Shown in pieces: positions 16,318 to 58,482 of a stretch of 64,000 nucleotides of DNA. The stretch is taken from contig OX597823.1 of assembly GCA_951406725.2 (NCBI GenBank), positions 110,918,001 through 110,982,000 of the forward strand. The letters run 5' to 3'. The notes under the pieces are model-generated. The model had not been told where the DNA came from, did no database searches, and saw only the letters and a list, made by a program, of their open reading frames with translations. Positions within the stretch are counted from its first letter, which is position 1, and each line of letters begins with the position of its first letter. This stretch comes from Octopus vulgaris (lineage: Eukaryota). The translations under genes were made by a program, and so were the position numbers.

Positions 16318-16543
16318 TGAGCTGGCAGAAACGTTAGCACACTGGGCGAAATGCCTAGCGTTATTGCGTCTGTCGTTGCGTTCTGAGTTCAAATTCCGCC
16401 GAGGTCCACTTTGCCTTTCATCCTTTCGGGGTTGATAAATTAAGTACCAGTTACACACCGGGGTCGATGTAATCGACTTAATCCGTTCGTCTGTCCTTGT
16501 TTGTCCCCTCTATGTTTAGCCCCTTGTGAGCAATAAAGAAACA
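16318..16543 (+). mobile_element. SINE family B, young
   Basis: gagctggcagaaacgttagcac..gagttcaaattccgccgagg..ttagccccttgtg..aataaagaaa. Confidence 0.9.
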
Positions 16544-16580
16544 GATATAGTGTATTGAGTACACTTTGTCTATTTTTAAG

Positions 16581-26232: not shown

Positions 26233-26830
26233 TCATCATCATCATCATCATCGTTAAACATCCATCTTCCATGCTGGCATTGGTTGGACGGTTTGACTGA
26301 GGTCCGGAGAGCCAGTGGCTGCACCAGGCTCCAATCTTGATCTGGAAATGTTTCTACAGCTGGATGACTTTCCTAACACCAACCACTCCGAGAGTGTAGT
26401 GGGTGCTTTTCACATGCCATCAGCACGGGAGCCAGTCAGGTGACCCTGTCATTGATTGGATAGTGCTTTTCACATGCCACCAGCACTGGAACCAGTACTA
26501 GCATTGGCCATGTGCAGTTGGTGTTTTTTACGTGCCACTGGTATGAGAGCCAGTCAGGGGTTGCTGACATCAGCCATGTTTCGATGGTGCTTTTTACATG
26601 CCAACAGTATGGGAGCTAGTCAGGTGGTCCTGGCATTGACCACGTTTGGGTGGTGCTTTTACGTGCCACCAGCATGGGAACCAGTCAGGTGGTCCTGGCA
26701 TTGACCACGTTTGGATGGTGCTTTTTACGTGCCACCAGCACAGGAGCCAGTCAGGGGGCACTGGCCACACCTACAATATTGGTTTTACTTGACTCAACAG
26801 GTCTTCTCAAGCATATTATATCACAAGATG
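26233..26830 (-). mobile_element. RTE-type 3'UTR with about six internal 59-66-bp tandem units
   Basis: (CAT)n tail followed by repeated ggtgcttttacgtgccaccagca..ccagtcagg units starting near 26402, 26462, 26521, 26586, 26652 and 26717. Confidence 0.85.
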
Positions 26831-37667: not shown

Positions 37668-37846
37668 AGGGATATTGTATTCCATTACTTGTCACAAGTC
37701 AAAACAGCAAAGGTATAAGCTGTATTGTTTTCAGGGTATGTAAACATGACTTCACTGTTTCACTCAAAAAATACCATGCAAAGTCATGCAAAATATAAAC
37801 ATTCACACACACACTAACATCATTACCATCACTACTATCATTATCA

Positions 37847-38360
37847 TCACATAGCTAGCTAGAGCTGATGGCCTCTTGGAGCTAATCAACGGCGGTATTT
37901 GTCCTATTTATCTGGACTGCCATGTTAACTTGGCGGTAACTATTAATATCCAGTACCGCTGCCATAGTCTCGTTTAGAGAGAATTAGAAATAATAATATT
38001 TCTATTTTTGAAAACCAGTGGATGTATTCCACTGAATTTAGATAGATAATCCTTCGAACAGACGGTCAACAGCAATGCCTGCTGGGTTTGACTACTCCAC
38101 ATTGATAAGGGGCAACTAACCCGAAACTAGTCTGTGGTTGCCAAACCAGCAAGGAGAAGCTGCTGACATCCCCTGTTCAATGGGTATAAGGGACACAGGT
38201 TTGTGTGTCACATAGCTAGAGGCGATGGCCTCTCGGAGCTAATCAACGACAGCATTCGTCCTATTTTTCTAGACTGCCATGTTAGCTTGGCAATAACTAT
38301 TAATATCCGGTATGGCTGCTGTAGTATCCTTTAGAGAGAATTAGAAATAATGATATTTCT
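37847..38360 (+). mobile_element. Retrozyme-like element: about 1.4 copies of a roughly 360-bp structured monomer with a central hammerhead
   Basis: Direct repeats 37847-38003 and 38208-38360; no ORF; multiple hairpins; hammerhead at 38097-38137. Confidence 0.75.
38097..38137 (+). ncRNA. Type I hammerhead ribozyme, U3:A8 core variant
   Basis: ccaca-TTGATAA-g-ggg-caactaa-ccc-GAAA-ctag-TC-tgtgg; perfect stem I, palindromic stem III (ACTAGT), GUC cleavage site; stem I extends into a rod spanning 38056-38178. Confidence 0.8.
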
Positions 38361-38653
38361 TTATATATCATTATTATTATCATTTGCTTACCATGGCATG
38401 GGTTAAATAGTATGTCACAGTCTGTGTCATTTCTTAATGAGGGCTTCTGCTCCCATAAAGTAAACCTTATATGTGTCATCTGGCTTGGTTTCTACAGCTG
38501 AATACACTATCTGTCTCCAAACATTTCACAGAATATACTGGGTATGTTTTCTTGTGGCACCACCATTAGAGAAGACAAGATTAAAAGCAATCTCAAAATC
38601 CAATACTAACACTGTTTATTTAAAAATTATTAGTAATGTGTAGTTATATATAT

Positions 38654-38882
38654 ATTTCTTTACTACCCACAAGGGGCTAAACAAGAGAGGACAAACAAGG
38701 ACAGACAAACGGATTAAGTTGATTACATCGACCCCAATGCATAACTGGTACTTAATTTATCGCCCTGAAAGGATGAAAGGCAAAGTCGACCTCGGTGGAA
38801 TTTGAACTCAGAACGTAACGGCAGACGAAATATGGCTACACATTTCACCCTGTGTGCTAACGTTTCTGCCAGCTCGCCACCT
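38654..38882 (-). mobile_element. SINE family B, full length, with target-site duplication
   Basis: Reverse complement of family B; flanks tgtgtagtta(t/c)ata on both sides. Confidence 0.9.
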
Positions 38883-39791
38883 TACTGTGTAGTTACATAT
38901 ATGTCGTATATAATACTAGCTGCATTTTTTACAAGGCACCAGCACTAGAGAACTTTTCTTGTTCCTCAACCACACTAGAGGGAGTGCAGCATGGTAGATG
39001 GGCAGGAGGAGGGTGGCTTGTACACAGTTTATATAAAGAGTGCCCGATTATCAAAGACATGTAGATCAAGGAGGGGAATAGGGGAGGGACTGATGATCAT
39101 TAACAACAATTTTGCTGAGGCTACAATTCTTCAGTTTTGAAGAATAGGTGTAATCTTGGTGTTCTAGTGATCTGATGAGCTATCTTTTTTATCTGCACTG
39201 ATCTATAAACATACAATTGTATTGTATAATAATATGTAACACACACATTAGTGCAGACATCAAAAATATATTATTAGACACTGAAATTAATAATATGGTG
39301 ATGAAGGCTGTGAAACAGCTGTAATCCTAAAGATGACAAGTGATTGAATAGATATATACACCTCTCACACCTTTTGACTTTTTATAATTATAGGTGTGTA
39401 TGCATGGGTGTGTGTGTGTTTAATTTATGTGTTAGCATGGTTGGAACAAGCTTTATTGAAGCAATAATCTACAATCATTTGCATTTCCTTATACAAAAAC
39501 CTAGTTATTTTTCACAAACAGAATTTTCAATTCAGCTGGTGAAACTACTGACCTTCAGAACATGATGTTTATAGAAGACATAAACGAATACCAATCTTTG
39601 TCAAACTGTGTTAATGTAAAAAACATGCAAAGATACACACACACACACACACACACACATCATATTGTCAGCATCATTGTTTTAATAACCTCTGACCCAT
39701 GCTTGCATTGGTCAAACAAACTTCATTGAAACAGATTCTTTATGGCTGGATAACCTTATTTTACCTATTTCCATATTAATATTTCATCCAC

Positions 39792-39999
39792 TCCTTTCGT
39801 TACCATATTTCTGTTGAGATGCTCTGTGTTTCTTTCAATTAATTTTAAATATGACAAAGAATTTAGTAAAATAACTTAGTTGTCATTAAGCTAGTGTTAG
39901 GAACATAAATTGTGACTAATGTTTGGTGGAAGATTTTAATTCAAAACTTATGGAAACAAGAGCCAGAAGCAGTTCCAGCCAGGTTCGTATTGAAATAGT
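39792..39999 (-). mobile_element. piggyBac-like MITE, second copy
   Basis: Reverse complement of 49429-49649; starts cctttcgttacc. Confidence 0.8.
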
Positions 40000-40034
40000 T
40001 TAAAAATAAACAGCTGGAATGGACAGATATATTG

Positions 40035-40552
40035 GTTTTAAATTTTGGCTCAAGGCTAGCAATTTCAGGGGAGAGGTTTGTCAATGACAACGAACCCAGT
40101 ATGGAACTGATAATATTTAATCAGCCCAAAAGGATGAAAGGTAAAGATGGCATCTGTAAGATTTGAACTCAGAATATAAAAATGGACGAAATATCACTAA
40201 GCATTTTCCCAGTGTGGTGACGATTCTGCCAGCTTCCCACCTGCAAACGGCCAGACATATTAGCATGTGGTATTGCAAATAGAAAACACTATTGTATGAC
40301 ACAGGCATACAAAGTGGGGACACACCTATATATATTTCTTTACGAACCACAAGGGGCTAAACACAGAGGGGACAAACAAGGACAGAAAAACGGATTAAGT
40401 CGATTACATCAACTCCAGTGCGTAACTGGTACTTAATATATCAACCCCAAAAGGATGAAAGGCAAGGTCGACCTCGGCGGAATTTGAACCTAGAACGTAA
40501 CCGCAGACGAAATACAGCTATGCATTTTGCCCGGTGTGCTAACGTTTCTGCC
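40035..40552 (-). mobile_element. Two SINE family B copies (about 40035-40240 and 40334-40552)
   Basis: aaggatgaaagg..tttgaac..ttctgcca motifs. Confidence 0.82.
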
Positions 40553-40625
40553 ATCTCTTAGATCATTGTGTGTGTGTGTGTGTTTGTGTGTGTGTATGCA
40601 TGCACGCAAGTGTGTGTGTATGTAT

Positions 40626-41035
40626 TCTTTTATTCTTTTATTCTTATAGTTGTTTCAGTCATTTCACTGCGGCCATGCTGGAGCACTGCCTTAAAGGAAT
40701 TTTTCCAGTCGAAGAAATCAACCCCAGGACTTATTCTTTGTAAGCCTAGTATTTATTCTATTGGTCTCTTTTGCCAAACCCCTAAGTTACGGGGACGTAA
40801 ACACACCAGCATCGGTTTTTAAGTGGTGGTGGTGGGGGACAAACTCAGACATACACACATACATATATATAAATATATAACAGGCTTCTTTCAGTTTCCA
40901 TCTACCAAATCCACTCACAAGGCTTTGATCAGCCTGAGGCTATAGTAGAAGACACTCGCCCAAAGTGCAACACAGTGGGACTGAACCTGGAACCATGTGG
41001 TTGGGAAGCAAGCTTCTTACCACACAGCCATGCCT
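40626..41035 (-). mobile_element. SINE family A
   Basis: ttgtttcagtcattt..ggccatgctggagcac..cttaccacacagccatgcct. Confidence 0.9.
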
Positions 41036-41999
41036 ACAACTATGTATATATAGGCAAAACACCTTTCAAATTTTCAAATGTGTGTGTGTATACTATTATA
41101 TAAGGGCTGAGTATCTTTCAGATTAACTTGGGACTACAATGGAAGACACTTGCTCAAGGGGCAGTGGGACTGAATCCAAAACTATAAGTTTGGGAGGCAA
41201 ACTTCTTAACCACAGAGTTCAGTTTCCTTCTCTCTTTCTTCCTTTCCTTCTCTCTCTCTCTCTTTCAATCTCAATCACTCTCTCACCCCCTCTCTATCAA
41301 TATATACATATAAATGTGTATACACACACACACACTGATGGGGACCACTTCCATCTCAGATGAATCCTAATCAGTTTGGAGTAAAGCTCCTTTCGATTCA
41401 TCCCATTCCATCATTTTTGCCACTAGCACTGTTGATGATGATGATGAGGATGATGATGATGATGATGGATGTGGTGGTGATGATGATGCTGATGATGACA
41501 ACGACAACGACAACAACGACGACGATGATTACAATGACAACCCTTGTATTTTTTTTTTACATATTTACATATTCATTTGCATAAACATTTATTTATATTT
41601 ATATATATATTTCCATTATTTTATTGTTTCTATATTTTTTTCCCTCTCATTATAATAAGTTATTTATTTCATTTTTCATATTGTTATCTTGAGTTTTCAC
41701 ATTCGTTTTAAATTCTCTTGTTTACTTCTACGCTAGATTTTTTTTGCGATCTTTCCCTATTTAGGGTGCTGCCGAGTATATGAGGGGAGGGGCAACAGTT
41801 GTACGTGCATTGTCGGTTTTTGTTATTGTCTCTATCCTCCCCAGCACATATATCTATGTTGTTGTTGTTGTTGCTTTTATTGTTGCTAATGTTAATGCTG
41901 ATGGAGACAGTGGTGGTTGCAGCATTGACAGTGGTGGTCATGGTAGTAGTATCATGGCTCCTGTTCTTTTACTGTGTCATTAGCATTAGCTTGGCTTAT

Positions 42000-42001
42000 A
42001 C

Positions 42002-42040
<39 letters not shown>

Positions 42041-42156
42041 TGTGTATGTGTGTATGTGTGTATGTGTGAGTGTGTATGTATATATATGTATATGTATGTA
42101 TGCATATATATATATATATATATATACATATATACATATATATGTATATGTATGTA

Positions 42157-42194
<38 letters not shown>

Positions 42195-42464
42195 TGTATA
42201 TATACATATATATATATGTGTATATATATATATACATATATATATTATATATGTATGTATATGTATATATATGTATATACATGTAAATGTATAAGTGTAT
42301 ACATATGTACATATATATATATATACATATACAATATATGTATAGCCGTGTATGTTTATGAGTGCATGTGTGTGTCAATATTCATGCGTATGTATAGGGT
42401 ATGATGGTATGTTAATATTGGTCATTGTGATACTTACACACACACACACACACATACACACACT

Positions 42465-42495
<31 letters not shown>

Positions 42496-42823
42496 GTGTG
42501 CTGTTTTATTCCATGACCGGCCCAACCTGACCACCACCTTATACATCAGCCAGTTTGTGATTCATGTATATTATTAAGTTCAATCACAGATAAGATTAAA
42601 AAGTAAATACATCTAAAAACACACGTTTGTGCAGACACACACACACACACACACACACGTAAACACACACAAGCCCACATACACGCTCACACTCACACAA
42701 ATACACACACAATCACATGGATTTTCAAATATAAACACACAAAACACATACATAATCACAGAGGTAACCATCTGCAGATGATACATACATACATACTTAT
42801 ATATATGTATGTATGTAGATATG

Positions 42824-42872
<49 letters not shown>

Positions 42873-42907
42873 ATGTGTGTGTGTATATATATATATAGAT
42901 AGATATG

Positions 42908-42954
<47 letters not shown>

Positions 42955-43566
42955 GTATGCATGTATGTATGTATATATACAAACACAAAGAAACATGTAT
43001 ATGCATACCCACACATATATGCAGAAATTCAAGCAAACACCAAAATGAAACATAAATATATAAATAAACATATAAAAAAAATCAAGAACAAATGGATGAC
43101 AAATTTCAGAAAAAAAAATGTACAATAAAAAAATGCGATGAAACCAAAAAAAAAAAAAAAAAAAAATATATATATATAAAAAAAATCACACCAAACATCA
43201 ATGATTAGAAAAAAAAAAAACATATTAAAAGGACACAGAAAGAGAAATAAACAAACAGCAAAAAACATGAGATGATGATTGGGTGAAAAAATATTGCTGT
43301 GATGTTCGGTAAGAGAGAATTGGCTTGTTACATGAAACACTGGTGTAATACAGAGAGAGAGGCATTGCCTTTTAATCTTTTAAATTCTACAACTTAATTC
43401 CAGAGTTGCCAACAAAATGGCACTGTCATTTCACATCTGTTATTATAGTATGATGATTCTATCTTAAAACTACACTTAGTTTTCTTTGTTGCCAATTCTC
43501 TGTAATGGAATATATGAGTTATATATATTCCTGAATACTATTTCGATTTTTGTTAAGGATATATAT

Positions 43567-43607
<41 letters not shown>

Positions 43608-43630
43608 CATCTATCTACCTATCTACCTAA

Positions 43631-43693
<63 letters not shown>

Positions 43694-43708
43694 GTTATCC
43701 ATCCATCC

Positions 43709-43775
<67 letters not shown>

Positions 43776-44070
43776 CCACAATGTGTGTATGAGTGGCATT
43801 GTATACTTCAAGCATATATGTACTATATAAAAACACAAACACACATACATGTATGAGGGCATGCACACACACACACACACACATATATATGTATATTATG
43901 CATTTCTATACATATTGATGCATACATATTTATGGGTTGCTTTGCATATATATATATATAAACATGTATGTATATATATATACCTATATATATACATATA
44001 TATATGTATATGTGTGTATATATACATATATAACTATGTGTGTAAATATATTCCTATATATATATATGTA

Positions 44071-44129
<59 letters not shown>

Positions 44130-44339
44130 GGCTAGTTATTTAGCCTGGTCTTGTCTTCATTTTGTTTGATTTTTTGTTGTAGGTTGTTTGTATAAAAACA
44201 CGAGTATGCTAATCCTGCAGTATGTTGCTTGCACTATAGACATTTGCCAACCTCAAACAAAGATTATAAAAGATAATTTTGTTTCTATTTGCTTTAAGTT
44301 TTTTGTTCAGTATTTGCTACATATATAAGTATATATAAG

Positions 44340-44370
<31 letters not shown>

Positions 44371-44646
44371 TTGTAAGTGTGTTTATATATATGCATACTC
44401 ACCCACACATTATATATATCAATATATGTATGTATGTGTATATATATATATAATGTATGTATGTATGTATGTATCTATGTGTATGTATGTATGTATGTAT
44501 GTATGTATGTATGTATGTATGTATGTATGTATATATATGTATGTATGTATGTGTGTGTGTATGTGTATATAAATGTGTACCCATAAATGCATGTGTATAT
44601 ACATATATATGTAAGCATGTACATATAGGTATGTATGTATACATGC

Positions 44647-44704
<58 letters not shown>

Positions 44705-44750
44705 ATATATATATATCAATATACATATATATATCTATATATATAATCAC
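42000..44750. repeat. Compound microsatellite field (TA, CA, CTAT, TATG)
   Basis: Directly visible. Confidence 0.9.
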
Positions 44751-45194
44751 TATTTTACATCAGAGTTTTCATGTTAGAATTGGTCTGACAATTCCTGATT
44801 GTCCGAGTCAGTTTTTATTGGTGCTACTTTACCACCCTGCAAGACACATTGAATACCAAATCTTGTATATTCCATTTTTCAGTTGATTTTATAAAGAAAT
44901 ATTTCATTAACAAGTGAAGTTTGTAATTCTACCAAGTGCCAAGGGAACTGAAATCTCCCCAGATAAAATGGTAAATTGAAAATATGTATTCAGCCTGATG
45001 ACCAATAATAGCGGCAAATAGGTGGAATTGGCAATCAACCTCTGTACATATACTGTAAAAGAAAATTAGAAATATGACATGAGACAAAAATTTTGAATCT
45101 AATCCATTTATTGATAGTTATTTACTTCACCAAACTCTTGCAGATATATAATAATAATGGTAGTAGTAGTAGTACTAATAGTATTAATATTATC

Positions 45195-45668
45195 AAGCAA
45201 GCTGACAAAATCATTAGTAAAATTATTTTGAGGTTTTTCTTCTGGTCCTTTGCTTTCAGAGTTCAAATCTGCCTGAGAGCAGCTTTAGATTTCATCCTTC
45301 TGTGGTCAATGGAATGAACTAGCTGTCAAGTATTGAATTCAAAATTATCCAACAGCCACCCTCTCAAAATTACTGGCTTTGTGCCAAGATTTGAAACCCA
45401 CATCAACATCATCATCATCATCATCATCATCGGTGGCGGCAGCGGTGTCATCATTGTCATCATCATTATTATTGATGCTGCAATCATTCGTACATTGAAT
45501 GAAATGCTTGGCAGCAGTTTCTTTCCTCTCTTTGTGACCGGACCTCAAAGCCTACCTTTCAACTTTTCAGGGTCGATGAAATATAGTACCATGAATTCAT
45601 TAGGATCAGTGTAATTGATTTGCCCCTTCCCTCAAAACTGACGATCTTGTGCCTAAATTAGAATGAAC

Positions 45669-45742
<74 letters not shown>

Positions 45743-45935
45743 GGTGAGCTGGATGAATTGTTAGCAGGCTGGGCAAAATCGTTCATTCTTTTTTTCATTC
45801 TGAGATCAAATTCTGCCGAGGTTGACTTAGCCTTACAACCTTTCATGGTTGAGAAAATAAGTATCAATTGAGTACTGGGTTCGATGTAATCAAATTAACC
45901 CCTCTTCCCCAAAATTGCTAGCCTTGTGCCAAAAT
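45195..45935 (+). mobile_element. Three old SINE family B copies separated by (CAT)n/(TTA)n
   Basis: Degenerate gagttcaaat..ttcatcc..ggtc and ..ccttgtgcc..aa tails near 45260, 45570 and 45800. Confidence 0.65.
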
Positions 45936-45949
45936 CAATCTTACTTGCT

Positions 45950-46225
45950 CCAGTTAATTCTGTAAGAATGAACAACAATCTGGTGTCAAGGTCTCACAGG
46001 ATTTCTTTCTATGACACTTAAAACCAAAGTACCAGTTTTAAAATTCTCACTGTCTTCAATAGTTAGGTTTTTGAGTGTGTTCTACCCTCTTATCAATTCC
46101 AGTTCCTCCAATATATTTCTCAAATCTGGTTGTTAGTGCTCCCAGTGTCCCTATAACTACAAGGATAACAGTTACTCCCTTCTTTGTCCACATGAGTGCA
46201 ATTTCATCTTTAAGAATCTTCTCTA
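45950..46225 (-). mobile_element. R4/Dong-type LINE extreme 3' end, same subfamily as 6508-7416
   Basis: Minus translation KDEIALMWTKKGVTVILVVIGTLGALTTRFEKYIGGTGIDKRVEHTQK parallels the 7067 frame. Confidence 0.8.
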
Positions 46226-46239
46226 GAATTCTTGGATAA

Positions 46240-46735
46240 TATTGGGTGGAACTTTTCTGCTGGTTGACAATGCAAATTTTTTCTATTTTCTATTCAGTCT
46301 TTTTCAGTCTTTTAGTAGCATTTTGAGTGTTGTGCAAAGGGCATCATTTACTACAGGAATAACTGTTGTCTTAGTCCTCCACTGCCTCCTCAGCTCCTTG
46401 CTAGATCCTGATATTTCTTTATTTTTTGTAGATTTCTTTTGTATTGGCTCTGCTATCATCAGGAACTGCAAAATCTATGATCTTACACTGTTTCTTTATC
46501 TTGTCCTCTATAATCGTATTTGGTCTTCTTGCGTAGATAGTATGATCAGTCATGGGGAGGCCCCACAAGATATTGTAATTCTCATTTCCTATAAGATATT
46601 TTTGCTTGTGTCCATACCACTTTTCTGTTATTTTGAAGCCACATAGTCAGCTAACTTCCCAGTGCACTCTTTTGCACATGCAGCCATGCATGCACTTATA
46701 CACCTTATGTGCTAGTATAATACACTTTCTCAAAA
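46240..46735 (-). mobile_element. R4/Dong-type LINE endonuclease fragment, another subfamily
   Basis: Minus translation ..RVHWEV..KITEKWYGHK..ENYNILWG..TDHTIYARRPNTIIEDKIKKQCKIIDFAVPDD..(shift)KYQDLARELRRQWRTKTTVIPVV. Confidence 0.82.
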
Positions 46736-46834
46736 GGGGATTGGTACTTTCATCTACCTTGCTTTGATACAGTCCTGGCAACTTATCAAACCATCATCAT
46801 CATCATCATCACCACCACCACCACCATCATCTTC

Positions 46835-46890
<56 letters not shown>

Positions 46891-46910
46891 AATCATCAAT
46901 CATCATCGTC

Positions 46911-46947
<37 letters not shown>

Positions 46948-46953
46948 ATCATT

Positions 46954-46991
<38 letters not shown>

Positions 46992-47029
46992 TATTAGTGT
47001 AAAAAATTAGTATCGAGAGAAGAAAACAC

Positions 47030-47580
47030 ACACATACGCACTCACACAAACATGACAGGCTCCTTTCAGTTTCAATCTGCCAAATCCATTCACAAGTCTT
47101 TAGTCATCCCAGGACTACATTTGAAGCAACTTGTCCAAGTTGCCATTCAGTGAAAACGAACCTCAATCCATATAGTTCCAAAGCAAGGTTCTTACATTCA
47201 CAGCCATAGTGGCTGTGTGGTAAGTAGCTTGCTAACCAACCACATGGTTCCGGGTTCAGTCCCACTGCGTGACACCTTGGGCAAGTGTCTTCTACTATAG
47301 CCTTGGGCCGACCAAAGCCTTGTGAGTGGATTTGGTAGACTGAAACTGAAAGAAGCCTGTCGTATATATGTATATATATATATATGTGTTTGTGTGTCTG
47401 TGTTTGTCCCCCTAGCATTGCTTGACAACCGATGCTGGTGTGTTTACGTCCCGTCACTTAGCGGTTCGGCAAAACAGACTGATAGAATAAGTCCCGGGGT
47501 CGATTTGCTCGACTAAATGCGGTGCTCCAGCATGGCCGCAGTCAAATGACTGAAACAAGTAAAAGAGTAAAAAAAGAGTA
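47030..47580. mobile_element. Head-to-head SINE family A pair (old minus copy about 47030-47206; young plus copy 47208-47580)
   Basis: Junction cacagcca-tag-tggctgtg; both bodies recognisable. Confidence 0.85.
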
Positions 47581-48520
47581 TCATTGCCATTAGATATTAC
47601 AGTCCAAGACAGCCTCTATAAGATTGCTTAAGTATGAGCTGACCTGAGGCTAGATTCAAACAGTAATCACTATGTATAGTCTGTCATTGGAAACTTTATG
47701 TTTTGGCAGTAGATATTTTCACACTGCCACTGTGGGGATATGAACCGCAGACTTCAGAGTTACTTTGCTAGTTCACTACTGATTCGTTCATTTACAGTCT
47801 CTTTCTTTCTCTTGATTTGCATATCTTTCTTTGTCTCTGTCTCTTTTTGCCTCTCTCTTATTGTCTTTCCCATCCTCTCTTTTTCTCCTTCTCTCTGCTA
47901 AATAATTCATAGCTGTTAGTTCCATCCCTCATACGCCACTGAGATCCACCTTGCCTTGTATCTTTTGCCTGAAAAGTCTGAGATTTCCATATAAGAAATA
48001 ATACTTCTTCCACCACTATTATTGTTGTTGTTGTTGCTGTTGTTGTTCTTCATGTTCTTCAAGTTGCTGCCGTTGGTGTTACAAGTAACATCTGATAATA
48101 ATATTGGACATTTCTCAAGTAATGTCTTCTTATGCGACTTAGAATAACAAATGAGTTATGCATCAAAGTTAAAACTGGTTTAAAGCAAAATTAGAGGAAG
48201 AATCTGATACCATGTATCAGATTTGTTTAGCCTCTGGCAATTAAGAGATTTTTAATAAAAGTCTACGATATGATTATATGAAATCCATTAGAAGAATGCC
48301 ATAATAAACTTGACAAATCTAGGTCATATCTGCTTTGAATTCAAATGGAAAATAAAAAAACAAAAAACAATAAAATTATTTATCTCATATTTGTCTTTTG
48401 AAATATCATATTAACTCTTTTCATGTATTCCAACTGGATTTTATTGTGAAAACTTTTTACATGTATGTGTGTGTATGTGTGTGTGTGTATGTGTGTGTGT
48501 GTATGTGTGTGTGTGTGTGC

Positions 48521-48552
<32 letters not shown>

Positions 48553-48918
48553 ATTTCTCAGTACAAATATCTTTATGTAAGAGATACAATAGATAAAGAG
48601 AGCTCAACATTCTAAAGTACAACTGAAAAAGATCTAATCTAATATACATGCAACGATGTCGACACAAAATACTCTATGAACTACAAATATTAATATTAAA
48701 ATATATCGATATTTACTTTGGTAATAAACATGCCTTACTTCCTAGAGTATTTTGTAAGTATAAATTTGCATGTAGAGGCTGAATGATTTTAGCTCATCTG
48801 TAGCACATTGAACACTCTACACATATTCGTCTTCTTCAAGCGAATGTATTTGAGATGCATTTCATTATGCCATGAAGGGAAGTTTTTGTTTCCCTTCTTT
48901 TTTTTCAGAAATGGTGAT

Positions 48919-49195
48919 CAGTGAATAAACTTCACTGAAAATATATATATTTGCGAAGGCTTGGCAAGCATCTTCAACTAGCAGGCCATGCTACCCTAGA
49001 CTGATGAAGAGCAAGACTCACAAACATGCATGTCTCTAGGTGCTGGCCTGGCTGTTGGGGCTGCTTGTCTCCCCTTCGCAAATATAAGGACACAGGAAAT
49101 GTGTCAAAAGCTGACAGGAAGCGTCGATGCTTCCTAGGGCTAAATAGCAGTGGTGTGATTCCCTTTACGGGACTGTCACATTAAGTCGACAGTAT
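48919..49195 (+). ncRNA. Structured hammerhead-containing element, divergent homolog of 37847-38360
   Basis: Rod 48946-49086 closed by tatatttgcgaagg/ccttcgcaaatata; apex cctaga-CTGATGA-a-gag-caaga-ctc-aCAAA-catgcatg-TC-tctagg (48995-49040; GAAA box damaged); flanking hairpins in the same order as in the 38-kb element. Confidence 0.75.
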
Positions 49196-49297
49196 ACAGT
49201 CGTTCTTTTGTTTTCTTTTTTCGTAGGTCCTCAATTTCATGATGTGGCCAATCGTATCACTGTAGTTGATATCAATAGAAACAGATGCACAAAATAC

Positions 49298-53068: not shown

Positions 53069-53111
<43 letters not shown>

Positions 53112-53155
53112 CAATAATAAATCTCTGAACGAGATGTAAACAGTAACCGCTCGAC

Positions 53156-53204
53156 AACGTAAGGTGTACTCAGCCATCTCAATATGGCTAGTATACTTTA
53201 CGTT
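53156..53204 (+). other. Near-perfect 21-bp hairpin
   Basis: aacgtaaggtgtact-c-agccat-ctcaat-atggct-agtatactttacgtt, with two G-U pairs on the plus strand. Confidence 0.6.
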
Positions 53205-53286
53205 ATTATATATATATATATGAATAAATAAATAGAGTTTAACACAGGTGTAAATCAAATATTTTTACTTTCGACACTCATCTATT

Positions 53287-55119: not shown

Positions 55120-55428
55120 TACGCAGTCATAACCCTGTGCTTGAGGAGACCTATTGAGTCAAGTACATCAACATCAAAAATCAATGGAAATTGTAGTTGT
55201 GATCCCTGTGCTGGTGGCACATAAAAAGTACCATCTGAACGTGGCCGATGCCAGTGCCGCCTTGAGTGGCTTCCGTGCCGGTAGCATGTAAAAAGCACCA
55301 TCTGAACGTGGCCGATGCCAGTGCCGCCTTGACTGGCTTCCATGCCTTCTGGCTTCCCAGATTCCAGTCGAACCGTCCAACCCATGCTAGCATGGAAATG
55401 GACGTTAAACGATGATCATGATGATGAT
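55120..55428 (+). mobile_element. RTE-type 3'UTR fragment with tandem units and (GAT)n tail
   Basis: Two copies of accatctgaacgtggccgatgccagtgccgccttga; ends gacgttaaacgatgat. Confidence 0.85.
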
Positions 55429-57976: not shown

Positions 57977-58208
57977 AGGGCGGCGAGCTGGCAGAAACGT
58001 TAGCACGCCGGGCGAAACACGTAGCCGTATTTCGTCTGTCGATACGTTCCGAGTTAAAATCCCGCCGAGGTCGACTTTGCCTTTCATCCTTTCGGGGTCG
58101 ATAAATTAAGTACCAGTTACGCACTGGGATTGATTTAATCAGCCTAATCCCTTTGTCTGTCCTTGTTTGTCCCCTCTGTGTTTAGCCCCTTGTGGGTAGT
58201 AAAGAGAT
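57977..58208 (+). mobile_element. SINE family B, full length, with 16-bp target-site duplication
   Basis: ggcggcgagctggcagaaacgttagc..; atatatggtcaaatat at 57960-57975 and 58209-58224. Confidence 0.93.
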
Positions 58209-58482
58209 ATATATGGTCAAATATCTCTAGTAGTGAGTTACAAGAAGATAAAGAGAGATAGACTAATGTGTGTGTGTGTGTGTGTGTGTATTTCACTTAA
58301 GCATAGCAAAGTCTTGATGTTAGAACTTAACATGCTTTTGCTTCAAAATAAAGTGTATATCATAAAGTGTTAGTTGAGTGCACGGAGTATAATATGAGAT
58401 TAATCAAATGACAAAGGAGCAGGAAATTATGCAATAAAATGCATTAGCTTGCTGCTGTTTCTGCAATAACGTGATGCACAAG

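Follow-up and report, generated by a model that had tools for sequence, protein, structure and literature searches.

Hammerhead-bearing non-coding repeats of Octopus vulgaris share one covarying fold and carry Penelope-type insertion marks

Two loci in a microsatellite-rich 64-kb window of Octopus vulgaris DNA (contig OX597823.1, positions 110,918,001 to 110,982,000; assembly GCA_951406725.2, 2.8 Gb in 227 contigs) are decayed copies of abundant ~355-bp non-coding repeats of one superfamily. These repeats, ~355 nt long and bearing a hammerhead ribozyme motif, share one covarying fold and display the insertion marks of Penelope-like elements (PLEs). They are probably non-autonomous retroelements, with RNA likely cut and circularised and copied by a borrowed PLE enzyme. 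Locus A (37847-38360) comprises 1.4 units of a ~357-bp repeat, with an internal duplication of 86% identity, and locus B (48912-49198) spans 0.8 of one ~354-bp unit. Both fold better than their shuffled controls (z = -3.15 and -7.24, respectively), and no long coding frames were seen overlapping either locus. An Rfam search of the two loci at E<=10 returned no hammerhead and no other meaningful match; a scan of the whole window was discarded, swamped by microsatellite matches.

The sequence-only reading of the window had described two hammerhead-bearing elements with the same ordered hairpins, and every motif it named lies where it was placed. Its modules at 37847-38360 are present but do not form one element, the upstream part being a partial unit. 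The ACTGCC/GGCGGT module takes its GGCGGT (37932) from that partial unit and is confined to that copy, the family reading mostly GGCGAT and the full unit GGCAAT. Hairpin 4 is likewise present, but the AGCT said to enclose it is not general, as family B mostly has an AGCC/GGCT enclosure.

First-look searches of the genome yielded 2475 candidates for family A and 2735 for family B, 40 of each being scored. Motif-pattern searches gave 1604 matches against 0 in controls, and a shared-motif pattern gave 4236 against 7 in a reversed control. The superfamily contains at least nine families (A, B, C, B2, D, E, F, G and H, the last with 229 matches), and three further families are known from single or paired copies. 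Mean copy identity to the column majority rises from 0.895 in C through 0.924 in B, 0.926 in A and 0.974 in B2 to 0.988 in E, so the families represent successive waves, of which E is very recent. Repeat periods measure 354-360 bp, in line with the head-to-tail arrays of about 360 bp that had been forecast; dimers occur in A, B, B2 and H, and E reaches 11 units.

Pairwise alignment of loci A and B recovers only a 33-nt match, in keeping with the little primary identity noted originally; the loci are nonetheless homologous by descent. MAFFT on sequence alone aligns the families end to end, with between-family identity of 46-76%: over the aligned columns A and B share 53% identity, and C shares 61-64% with each of them. 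The proposal of two subfamilies of a structure-conserved element holds in the form of one superfamily with a covarying fold, linked by intermediates. Family H combines an A-like hammerhead apex (U3/A8) with an E-like 3' domain (L250-L279), suggesting module exchange between families. A required TATA box at TATAAGG was rejected, as this motif is GATAAGG in E and GGCAAGG in H, both of them young families.

The fold is arranged in the order H1, hammerhead rod, H3, H4, a P5 domain with two inner hairpins, H6 and H7, and is under selection across families, with the covariation suspected from two copies emerging strongly in three separate tests. In a transfer test, the structure predicted from one family was scored on the others, with close relatives left out. 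When the A-derived structure was scored on six other lineages, 86 of the 108 pairs changed on both sides were retained (permutation null 33.8 +/- 4.5; 0/2000 permutations); structures derived from C, B and B2 retained 62/79 (null 25.0), 99/139 (45.1) and 83/121 (41.3), each again with 0/2000 permutations. Two points weigh against this result: the E-derived structure transfers less well, retaining 43/95 (null 31.5; 15/2000 permutations), and all these permutation counts are not probabilities, because the lineages are related.

RNAalifold on 22 natural copies predicted 49 pairs, 37 of them with compensatory change; runs on single old families were set aside for their weak signal, attributable to decay of the copies. 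In a sequence-only alignment with 61 named pairs, their register taken from one family A row, 36 of 61 pairs change on both sides, and 90.6% of cells are paired against 36-46% when slid. Doubly changed cells number 186, compared with 69.1 shuffled and 17-33 slid, while extra pair types are not in excess (78 against 76.7 shuffled). This count excludes stem II, H3 and the outer rod helix, because the alignment is out of register there. Changes on both sides involve 16/18 pairs in rod helices 2-4, 7/8 in P5 and 4/6 in H1, extending across families the compensatory change first seen in H1. P5, the best new helix, closes the 3' domain around one insertion endpoint. In locus A two small hairpins lie within it, together with 3' site 1 (about 38304); the sequence-only reading missed P5 because locus B lacks the P5 3' strand, along with the tail.

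For the 3' half, 13 copies drawn from C, D, F, G, E, H and J, and thus from neither window family, were used to build a covariance model. It matches both loci (at 37840, 38183 and 49081), as expected of a single model for the two, and reveals a new copy at 53102-53230 (48.7 bits; profile match 53118-53188); sequence likeness contributes to these scores. G-U pairs are frequent in the plus-strand orientation of the fold, indicating plus-strand RNA. That the shared hairpins are chance, neutral leftovers or structures acting as single-stranded DNA is scarcely credible given the transfer test, the 61-pair count, RNAalifold and the covariance model, together with the plus-strand G-U pairs and the conserved ribozyme core. 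In favour of such an origin, H3 and H7 vary little and so provide a weak covariation signal.

Type I hammerhead motifs with a palindromic stem III and a GUC site occupy the rods of both loci, as described at the outset, but the core of locus B is broken. The core is C3/G8 in family B, U3/A8 in A and H, and U4C in B2 and E, and is matched in 22/29 units of A, 31/38 of B, 33/33 of B2, 62/62 of E and 9/24 of C. The locus A core, TTGATAA, carries U3/A8 in place of C3/G8; this is the family state, exact in 18/29 copies, and U3-A8 cores have been reported in Schistosoma PLE hammerheads (PMC4209133). Locus B has C at 49021 where its family has G12 of GAAA, a private change through which this copy is predicted to be inactive. 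A conserved UAC bulge and CAA loop resemble the elements that make tertiary contacts in canonical type I hammerheads. A scan of the window showed no ribozyme on the minus strand.

The genomic copies carry a PLE insertion signature. Of the 210 outward 3' ends mapped in five families, 191 coincide with one of two sites. Site 1 lies within the P5 loop; site 2 follows the terminal hairpin, at a distance of 43-55 nt from site 1. At many loci two arms are joined 5' to 5', an inverted arm lying adjacent to a partial tandem, and back-to-back arms with one end at each site account for 9/9 pairs in B, 23/27 in E and 9/14 in A (41/50 together). A partial tandem, an inverted arm and a one-sided tail form the PLE pattern (10.1101/2021.04.23.441226), which has been attributed to nicks in both target strands and a pair of internal reverse transcriptase (RT) start sites (PMC11167929). 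(TA)4 adjoins the end in 37/39 cases in B2, 35/38 in E, 15/35 in C, 13/41 in A and 5/38 in B, the others being mostly AT-rich by eye; the mostly plain AT-rich targets of A and B, set against the almost constant (TA)n of young families, may reflect different helpers or decay. The 5' ends of family E are spread round the unit, 2/66 sharing a 30-nt bin with the cut site, in a sample biased towards full units by the search.

The same marks would be expected if the copies were 5'-truncated ends (pseudo-long terminal repeats, pLTRs) of a coding PLE yet to be found; thousands of PLE loci lie outside our sample, and Xenopus retrozymes match PLE pLTRs (10.64898/2026.07.22.740005). We regard this as improbable, since the tail of the previous unit lies upstream of each unit, in up to 11 units, flanks shared between loci reach no further than the unit border in 60 loci of families A and B, and no sampled PLE has this RNA at its end. 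Nor was any copy examined a piece of the untranslated region of a coding Penelope element.

Intact autonomous PLEs are present in the genome as a ~900-aa family and a young 781-aa family, both ending at two sites in (TA)n. The young family (L317-L334, L347-L348, e.g. L317:1245-3587) contains an RT plus GIY-YIG frame with a CxxC linker of Neptune/Nematis type, an upstream frame and a minimal U3/A8 hammerhead; its pLTR carries CCAAT and TGACGTC repeats. A 13-pair helix encloses its two 3' ends, pairs with the upstream start codon region and covaries in an older subfamily; its 5' strand resembles the P5 5' strand, a short motif resemblance that offers a lead. The ~900-aa family, which we take to be Hydra-like, is abundant (L282-L286, L094-L123; 15085 first-look candidates) with a ~140-nt tail, and a scan found no canonical hammerhead in it. 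No significant sequence shared by either PLE family and the retrozymes was found among the sampled PLE loci. Among rejected leads, a GIY-YIG frame beside L078 belongs to the ~900-aa family and its 3' region is unrelated; matches at L343, L330, L305 and L347 are separate insertions near or inside PLEs; and L068 and L069, 2.5 kb apart, revealed no long frame.

Tentatively, and with more doubt than confidence, we suggest that a telomerase-related PLE RT recognises the conserved 3' domain by its structure only. In this reading the two starts would be fixed by P5 and the terminal hairpins, an enzyme dimer would roll one circle from both nicks, and families would switch helpers while keeping the fold. 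A P5-like design may be general for PLE template RNAs, because the young autonomous PLE has its own covarying helix around the start sites.

The template form was approached through 20 E arrays (101 units), the longest among 40 scored candidates. These arrays run across the cut site, and 5' ends do not accumulate there. Informative-site differences between units average 1.15 within a locus and 2.75 between loci (0/500 permutations), and in L230, L233 and L240 both arms carry variants private to the locus. That the units of a locus, those of the inverted arm included, mostly share one haplotype fits rolling-circle copying of one monomer, although a homogeneous linear precursor would look alike. 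Given the rest of the explanation, a circular RNA template is fairly likely, an estimate drawn largely from analogy with the retrozymes of PMC7229834, in which circular RNAs were demonstrated for coral, mussel and axolotl.

We propose a mechanism in which transcription of the plus strand of tandem loci would yield RNA from which hammerheads free monomers, a host ligase closing the circles. The H3-H4-P5-H6-H7 segment, its fold defined by covariation, would act as the signal bound by the PLE protein. Both target strands would then be nicked and primed by this putative enzyme, with cDNAs starting at site 1 in the P5 loop and at site 2 after the terminal hairpin; two start sites would generate back-to-back arms with the 43-55-nt tail on one end only. 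The enzyme would round the circle for a variable distance, producing 0.3 to 11 units in AT-rich target DNA and crossing the cut site freely. Copies decay after insertion; those in the window are old, and at least the copy at 48.9 kb is core-broken.

Several observations pull against this explanation. No autonomous PLE bearing the retrozyme RNA was found when 95 PLE loci were searched with a multi-family profile and 25 with the covariance model; these searches detected only separate insertions, in a small sample of 6136 and 15085 candidates. Family C (24 copies; L124-L153) reads C3/A8 in 7/9 matched cores, an unpaired state expected to impair cleavage and a possible intermediate between C3/G8 and U3/A8. 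Arrays L229, L232 and L234 are mosaic, their variants being limited to stretches of neighbouring units. Local duplication or conversion is therefore at work as well, and such a process can make arrays homogeneous on its own. The array at L229:693-4945 contains 11 mosaic units with several haplotypes found pure at other loci, and could be a source array. A 390-nt cyclic contig in runs presumed to be RNA is explained equally by tandem DNA; the four runs compared consist of contigs, taken as RNA by guess, that give no ends, strand or level. Hammerhead cleavage was not needed for PLE insertion in vitro (PMC11167929), and only 1/9 Xenopus dimers cleaved (10.64898/2026.07.22.740005).

Part of this evidence would suit elements with the same fold and PLE dependence that use no circle, taking an uncut linear multimer as template and growing by template jumps or local duplication. 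The mosaic arrays, the spread of family C with a C3/A8 core and the dominance of uncleaved RNA as substrate in vitro (PMC11167929) favour such a route. It is nevertheless the unlikely one, as families of 46-64% identity have preserved the hammerhead core and its helices through compensatory changes, and both arms exceed 2 units in 4/20 E arrays (L231, L236, L238, L239). Pieces per locus are also most numerous in the youngest family (167 matches from 40 candidates; older families give 63-106), which fits birth as multimers. Copying from a circle by a borrowed PLE enzyme remains our preferred account.

By sequence-level features, the repeats match metazoan non-LTR retrozymes in every respect, being tandem repeats of a short non-coding monomer that contains a single type I hammerhead (PMC7229834; 10.64898/2026.07.22.740005), and belong to this known class with predicted self-cleavage. 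Mussel monomers measure 350-390 bp, PLEs have been proposed as helpers there too, and a PLE origin of animal retrozymes has been argued (10.64898/2026.07.22.740005). In the accessible text of these reports, published retrozymes are given single minimum-energy folds and called species-specific, whereas here a whole-monomer fold covaries in at least nine families; circles were demonstrated there, while here the PLE tail and back-to-back arms are mapped from genomic sequence alone. Partial tandems, an inverted 5'-truncated arm, a one-end tail, AT-rich or (TA)n targets, a palindromic stem III and the U3-A8 variant are shared with PLEs and pLTR hammerheads (PMC4209133; PMC11167929; PMC8557442). The retrozymes differ in having no reading frame, a tail of 43-55 nt rather than 30-40, and, unlike the minimal PLE hammerhead, a long rod with a short stem II. 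Chlamys elements such as MRC1 (PMC8557442) are also non-autonomous PLE derivatives with multicopy head-to-tail insertions, but as described their 3' end resembles that of an autonomous partner, in a clade mostly without hammerheads; here no partner so far shares sequence.

Genomic marks also bear on the term viroid-like RNA retroelement used in the sequence-only reading, of which the retroelement half stands. Viroids and viroid-like satellite RNAs are about 360 nt long, highly paired and hammerhead-bearing, with structure conserved over sequence. The repeats resemble them in these properties but are genomic and spread by DNA insertion, with thousands of genomic matches setting them apart from an RNA-only replicon. 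A non-autonomous Penelope-like retroelement fits better than a viroid-like RNA because of the genomic copies and PLE insertion signature.

The class itself is published; the whole-monomer covarying fold and the PLE insertion marks in retrozymes appear to be new. In the open literature, taken apart from subscription papers, Repbase and supplements, no description was found of cephalopod retrozymes, a covarying whole-monomer fold or a retrozyme tail signature; a 2020 supplement may list the genome or similar folds. For the route of animal retrozymes back into DNA, a PLE helper and a circle template have been proposed on circumstantial grounds, and this superfamily provides direct genomic marks of PLE-type insertion. 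Its very young family (99% identity) suits experiments, and the natural covariation series maps RNA structure around RT start sites. Helper, template form and RNA signal thereby become directly testable, with bearing on how telomerase-related enzymes choose an RNA start.

Table 1. Retrozyme features of the 64-kb window (positions within the window).
Feature	Position	Strand	Basis
Family A partial unit, 5'-truncated: hairpin 4, P5 domain, terminal hairpins; without hammerhead	37847..38004	+	86% identical to 38208-38360; covariance-model match 37840-38002, 57.7 bits
Family A full ~356-bp unit, 3' site 2 end in AT-rich flank	38005..38360	+	model match 38183-38359, 73.4 bits
Hairpin H1, locus A	38016..38034	+	CAGTGGA 38016 / TCCACTG 38028
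Long rod with hammerhead at apex, locus A	38050..38184	+	shuffle fold test; covariation in helices 2-4
Type I hammerhead motif with palindromic stem III, locus A	38097..38137	+	sequence; family alignment; core counts
U3/A8 core of locus A hammerhead; predicted cut after 38132	38102..38108	+	
Hairpins H3 (GACACA/TGTGTC) and H4, locus A	38192..38240	+	TATAAGG 38185; AGAGGC 38218 / GCCTCT 38228
P5 domain, locus A: long-range helix 38246-38253 with 38315-38322	38246..38322	+	covariation; mapped ends
Terminal hairpin H7 (AGAAAT/ATTTCT) and 3' site 2, locus A	38343..38360	+	family alignment; mapped ends
Family B copy, 0.8 unit, ending at 3' site 1	48912..49198	+	model match from 49081, 61.6 bits
Hairpin H1, locus B	48919..48937	+	CAGTGAA 48919 / TTCACTG 48931
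Rod with hammerhead 48995-49040, locus B	48949..49082	+	C3/G8 core, G12 to C at 49021; family cut site after 49034
Hairpins H3 and H4, P5 5' strand, hairpins P5a/P5b, locus B	49089..49193	+	motif positions (TATAAGG 49083; AGGAAGC 49116 / GCTTCCT 49129; ACTGTC 49172 / GACAGT 49188); fold; covariation
Third copy, unnoticed in the sequence-only reading: short 3' fragment of another family, site 2 end in (TA)n	53112..53190	-	

Outside the window, a sequencing run labelled as a different organism contains a near-identical E monomer (3 differences from L246:1426-1790), part of whose words also occur in runs under four further organism labels. One contig running on past the tail was followed and led to a single genomic flank without a frame. 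Within the window, 66-67-bp tandem units at 26402-26765 and 55208-55346 are kin to a common dispersed repeat, and a different dispersed repeat is present in three copies of ~230 bp (87% alike) at 16319-16550, 40326-40557 and 57985-58214.

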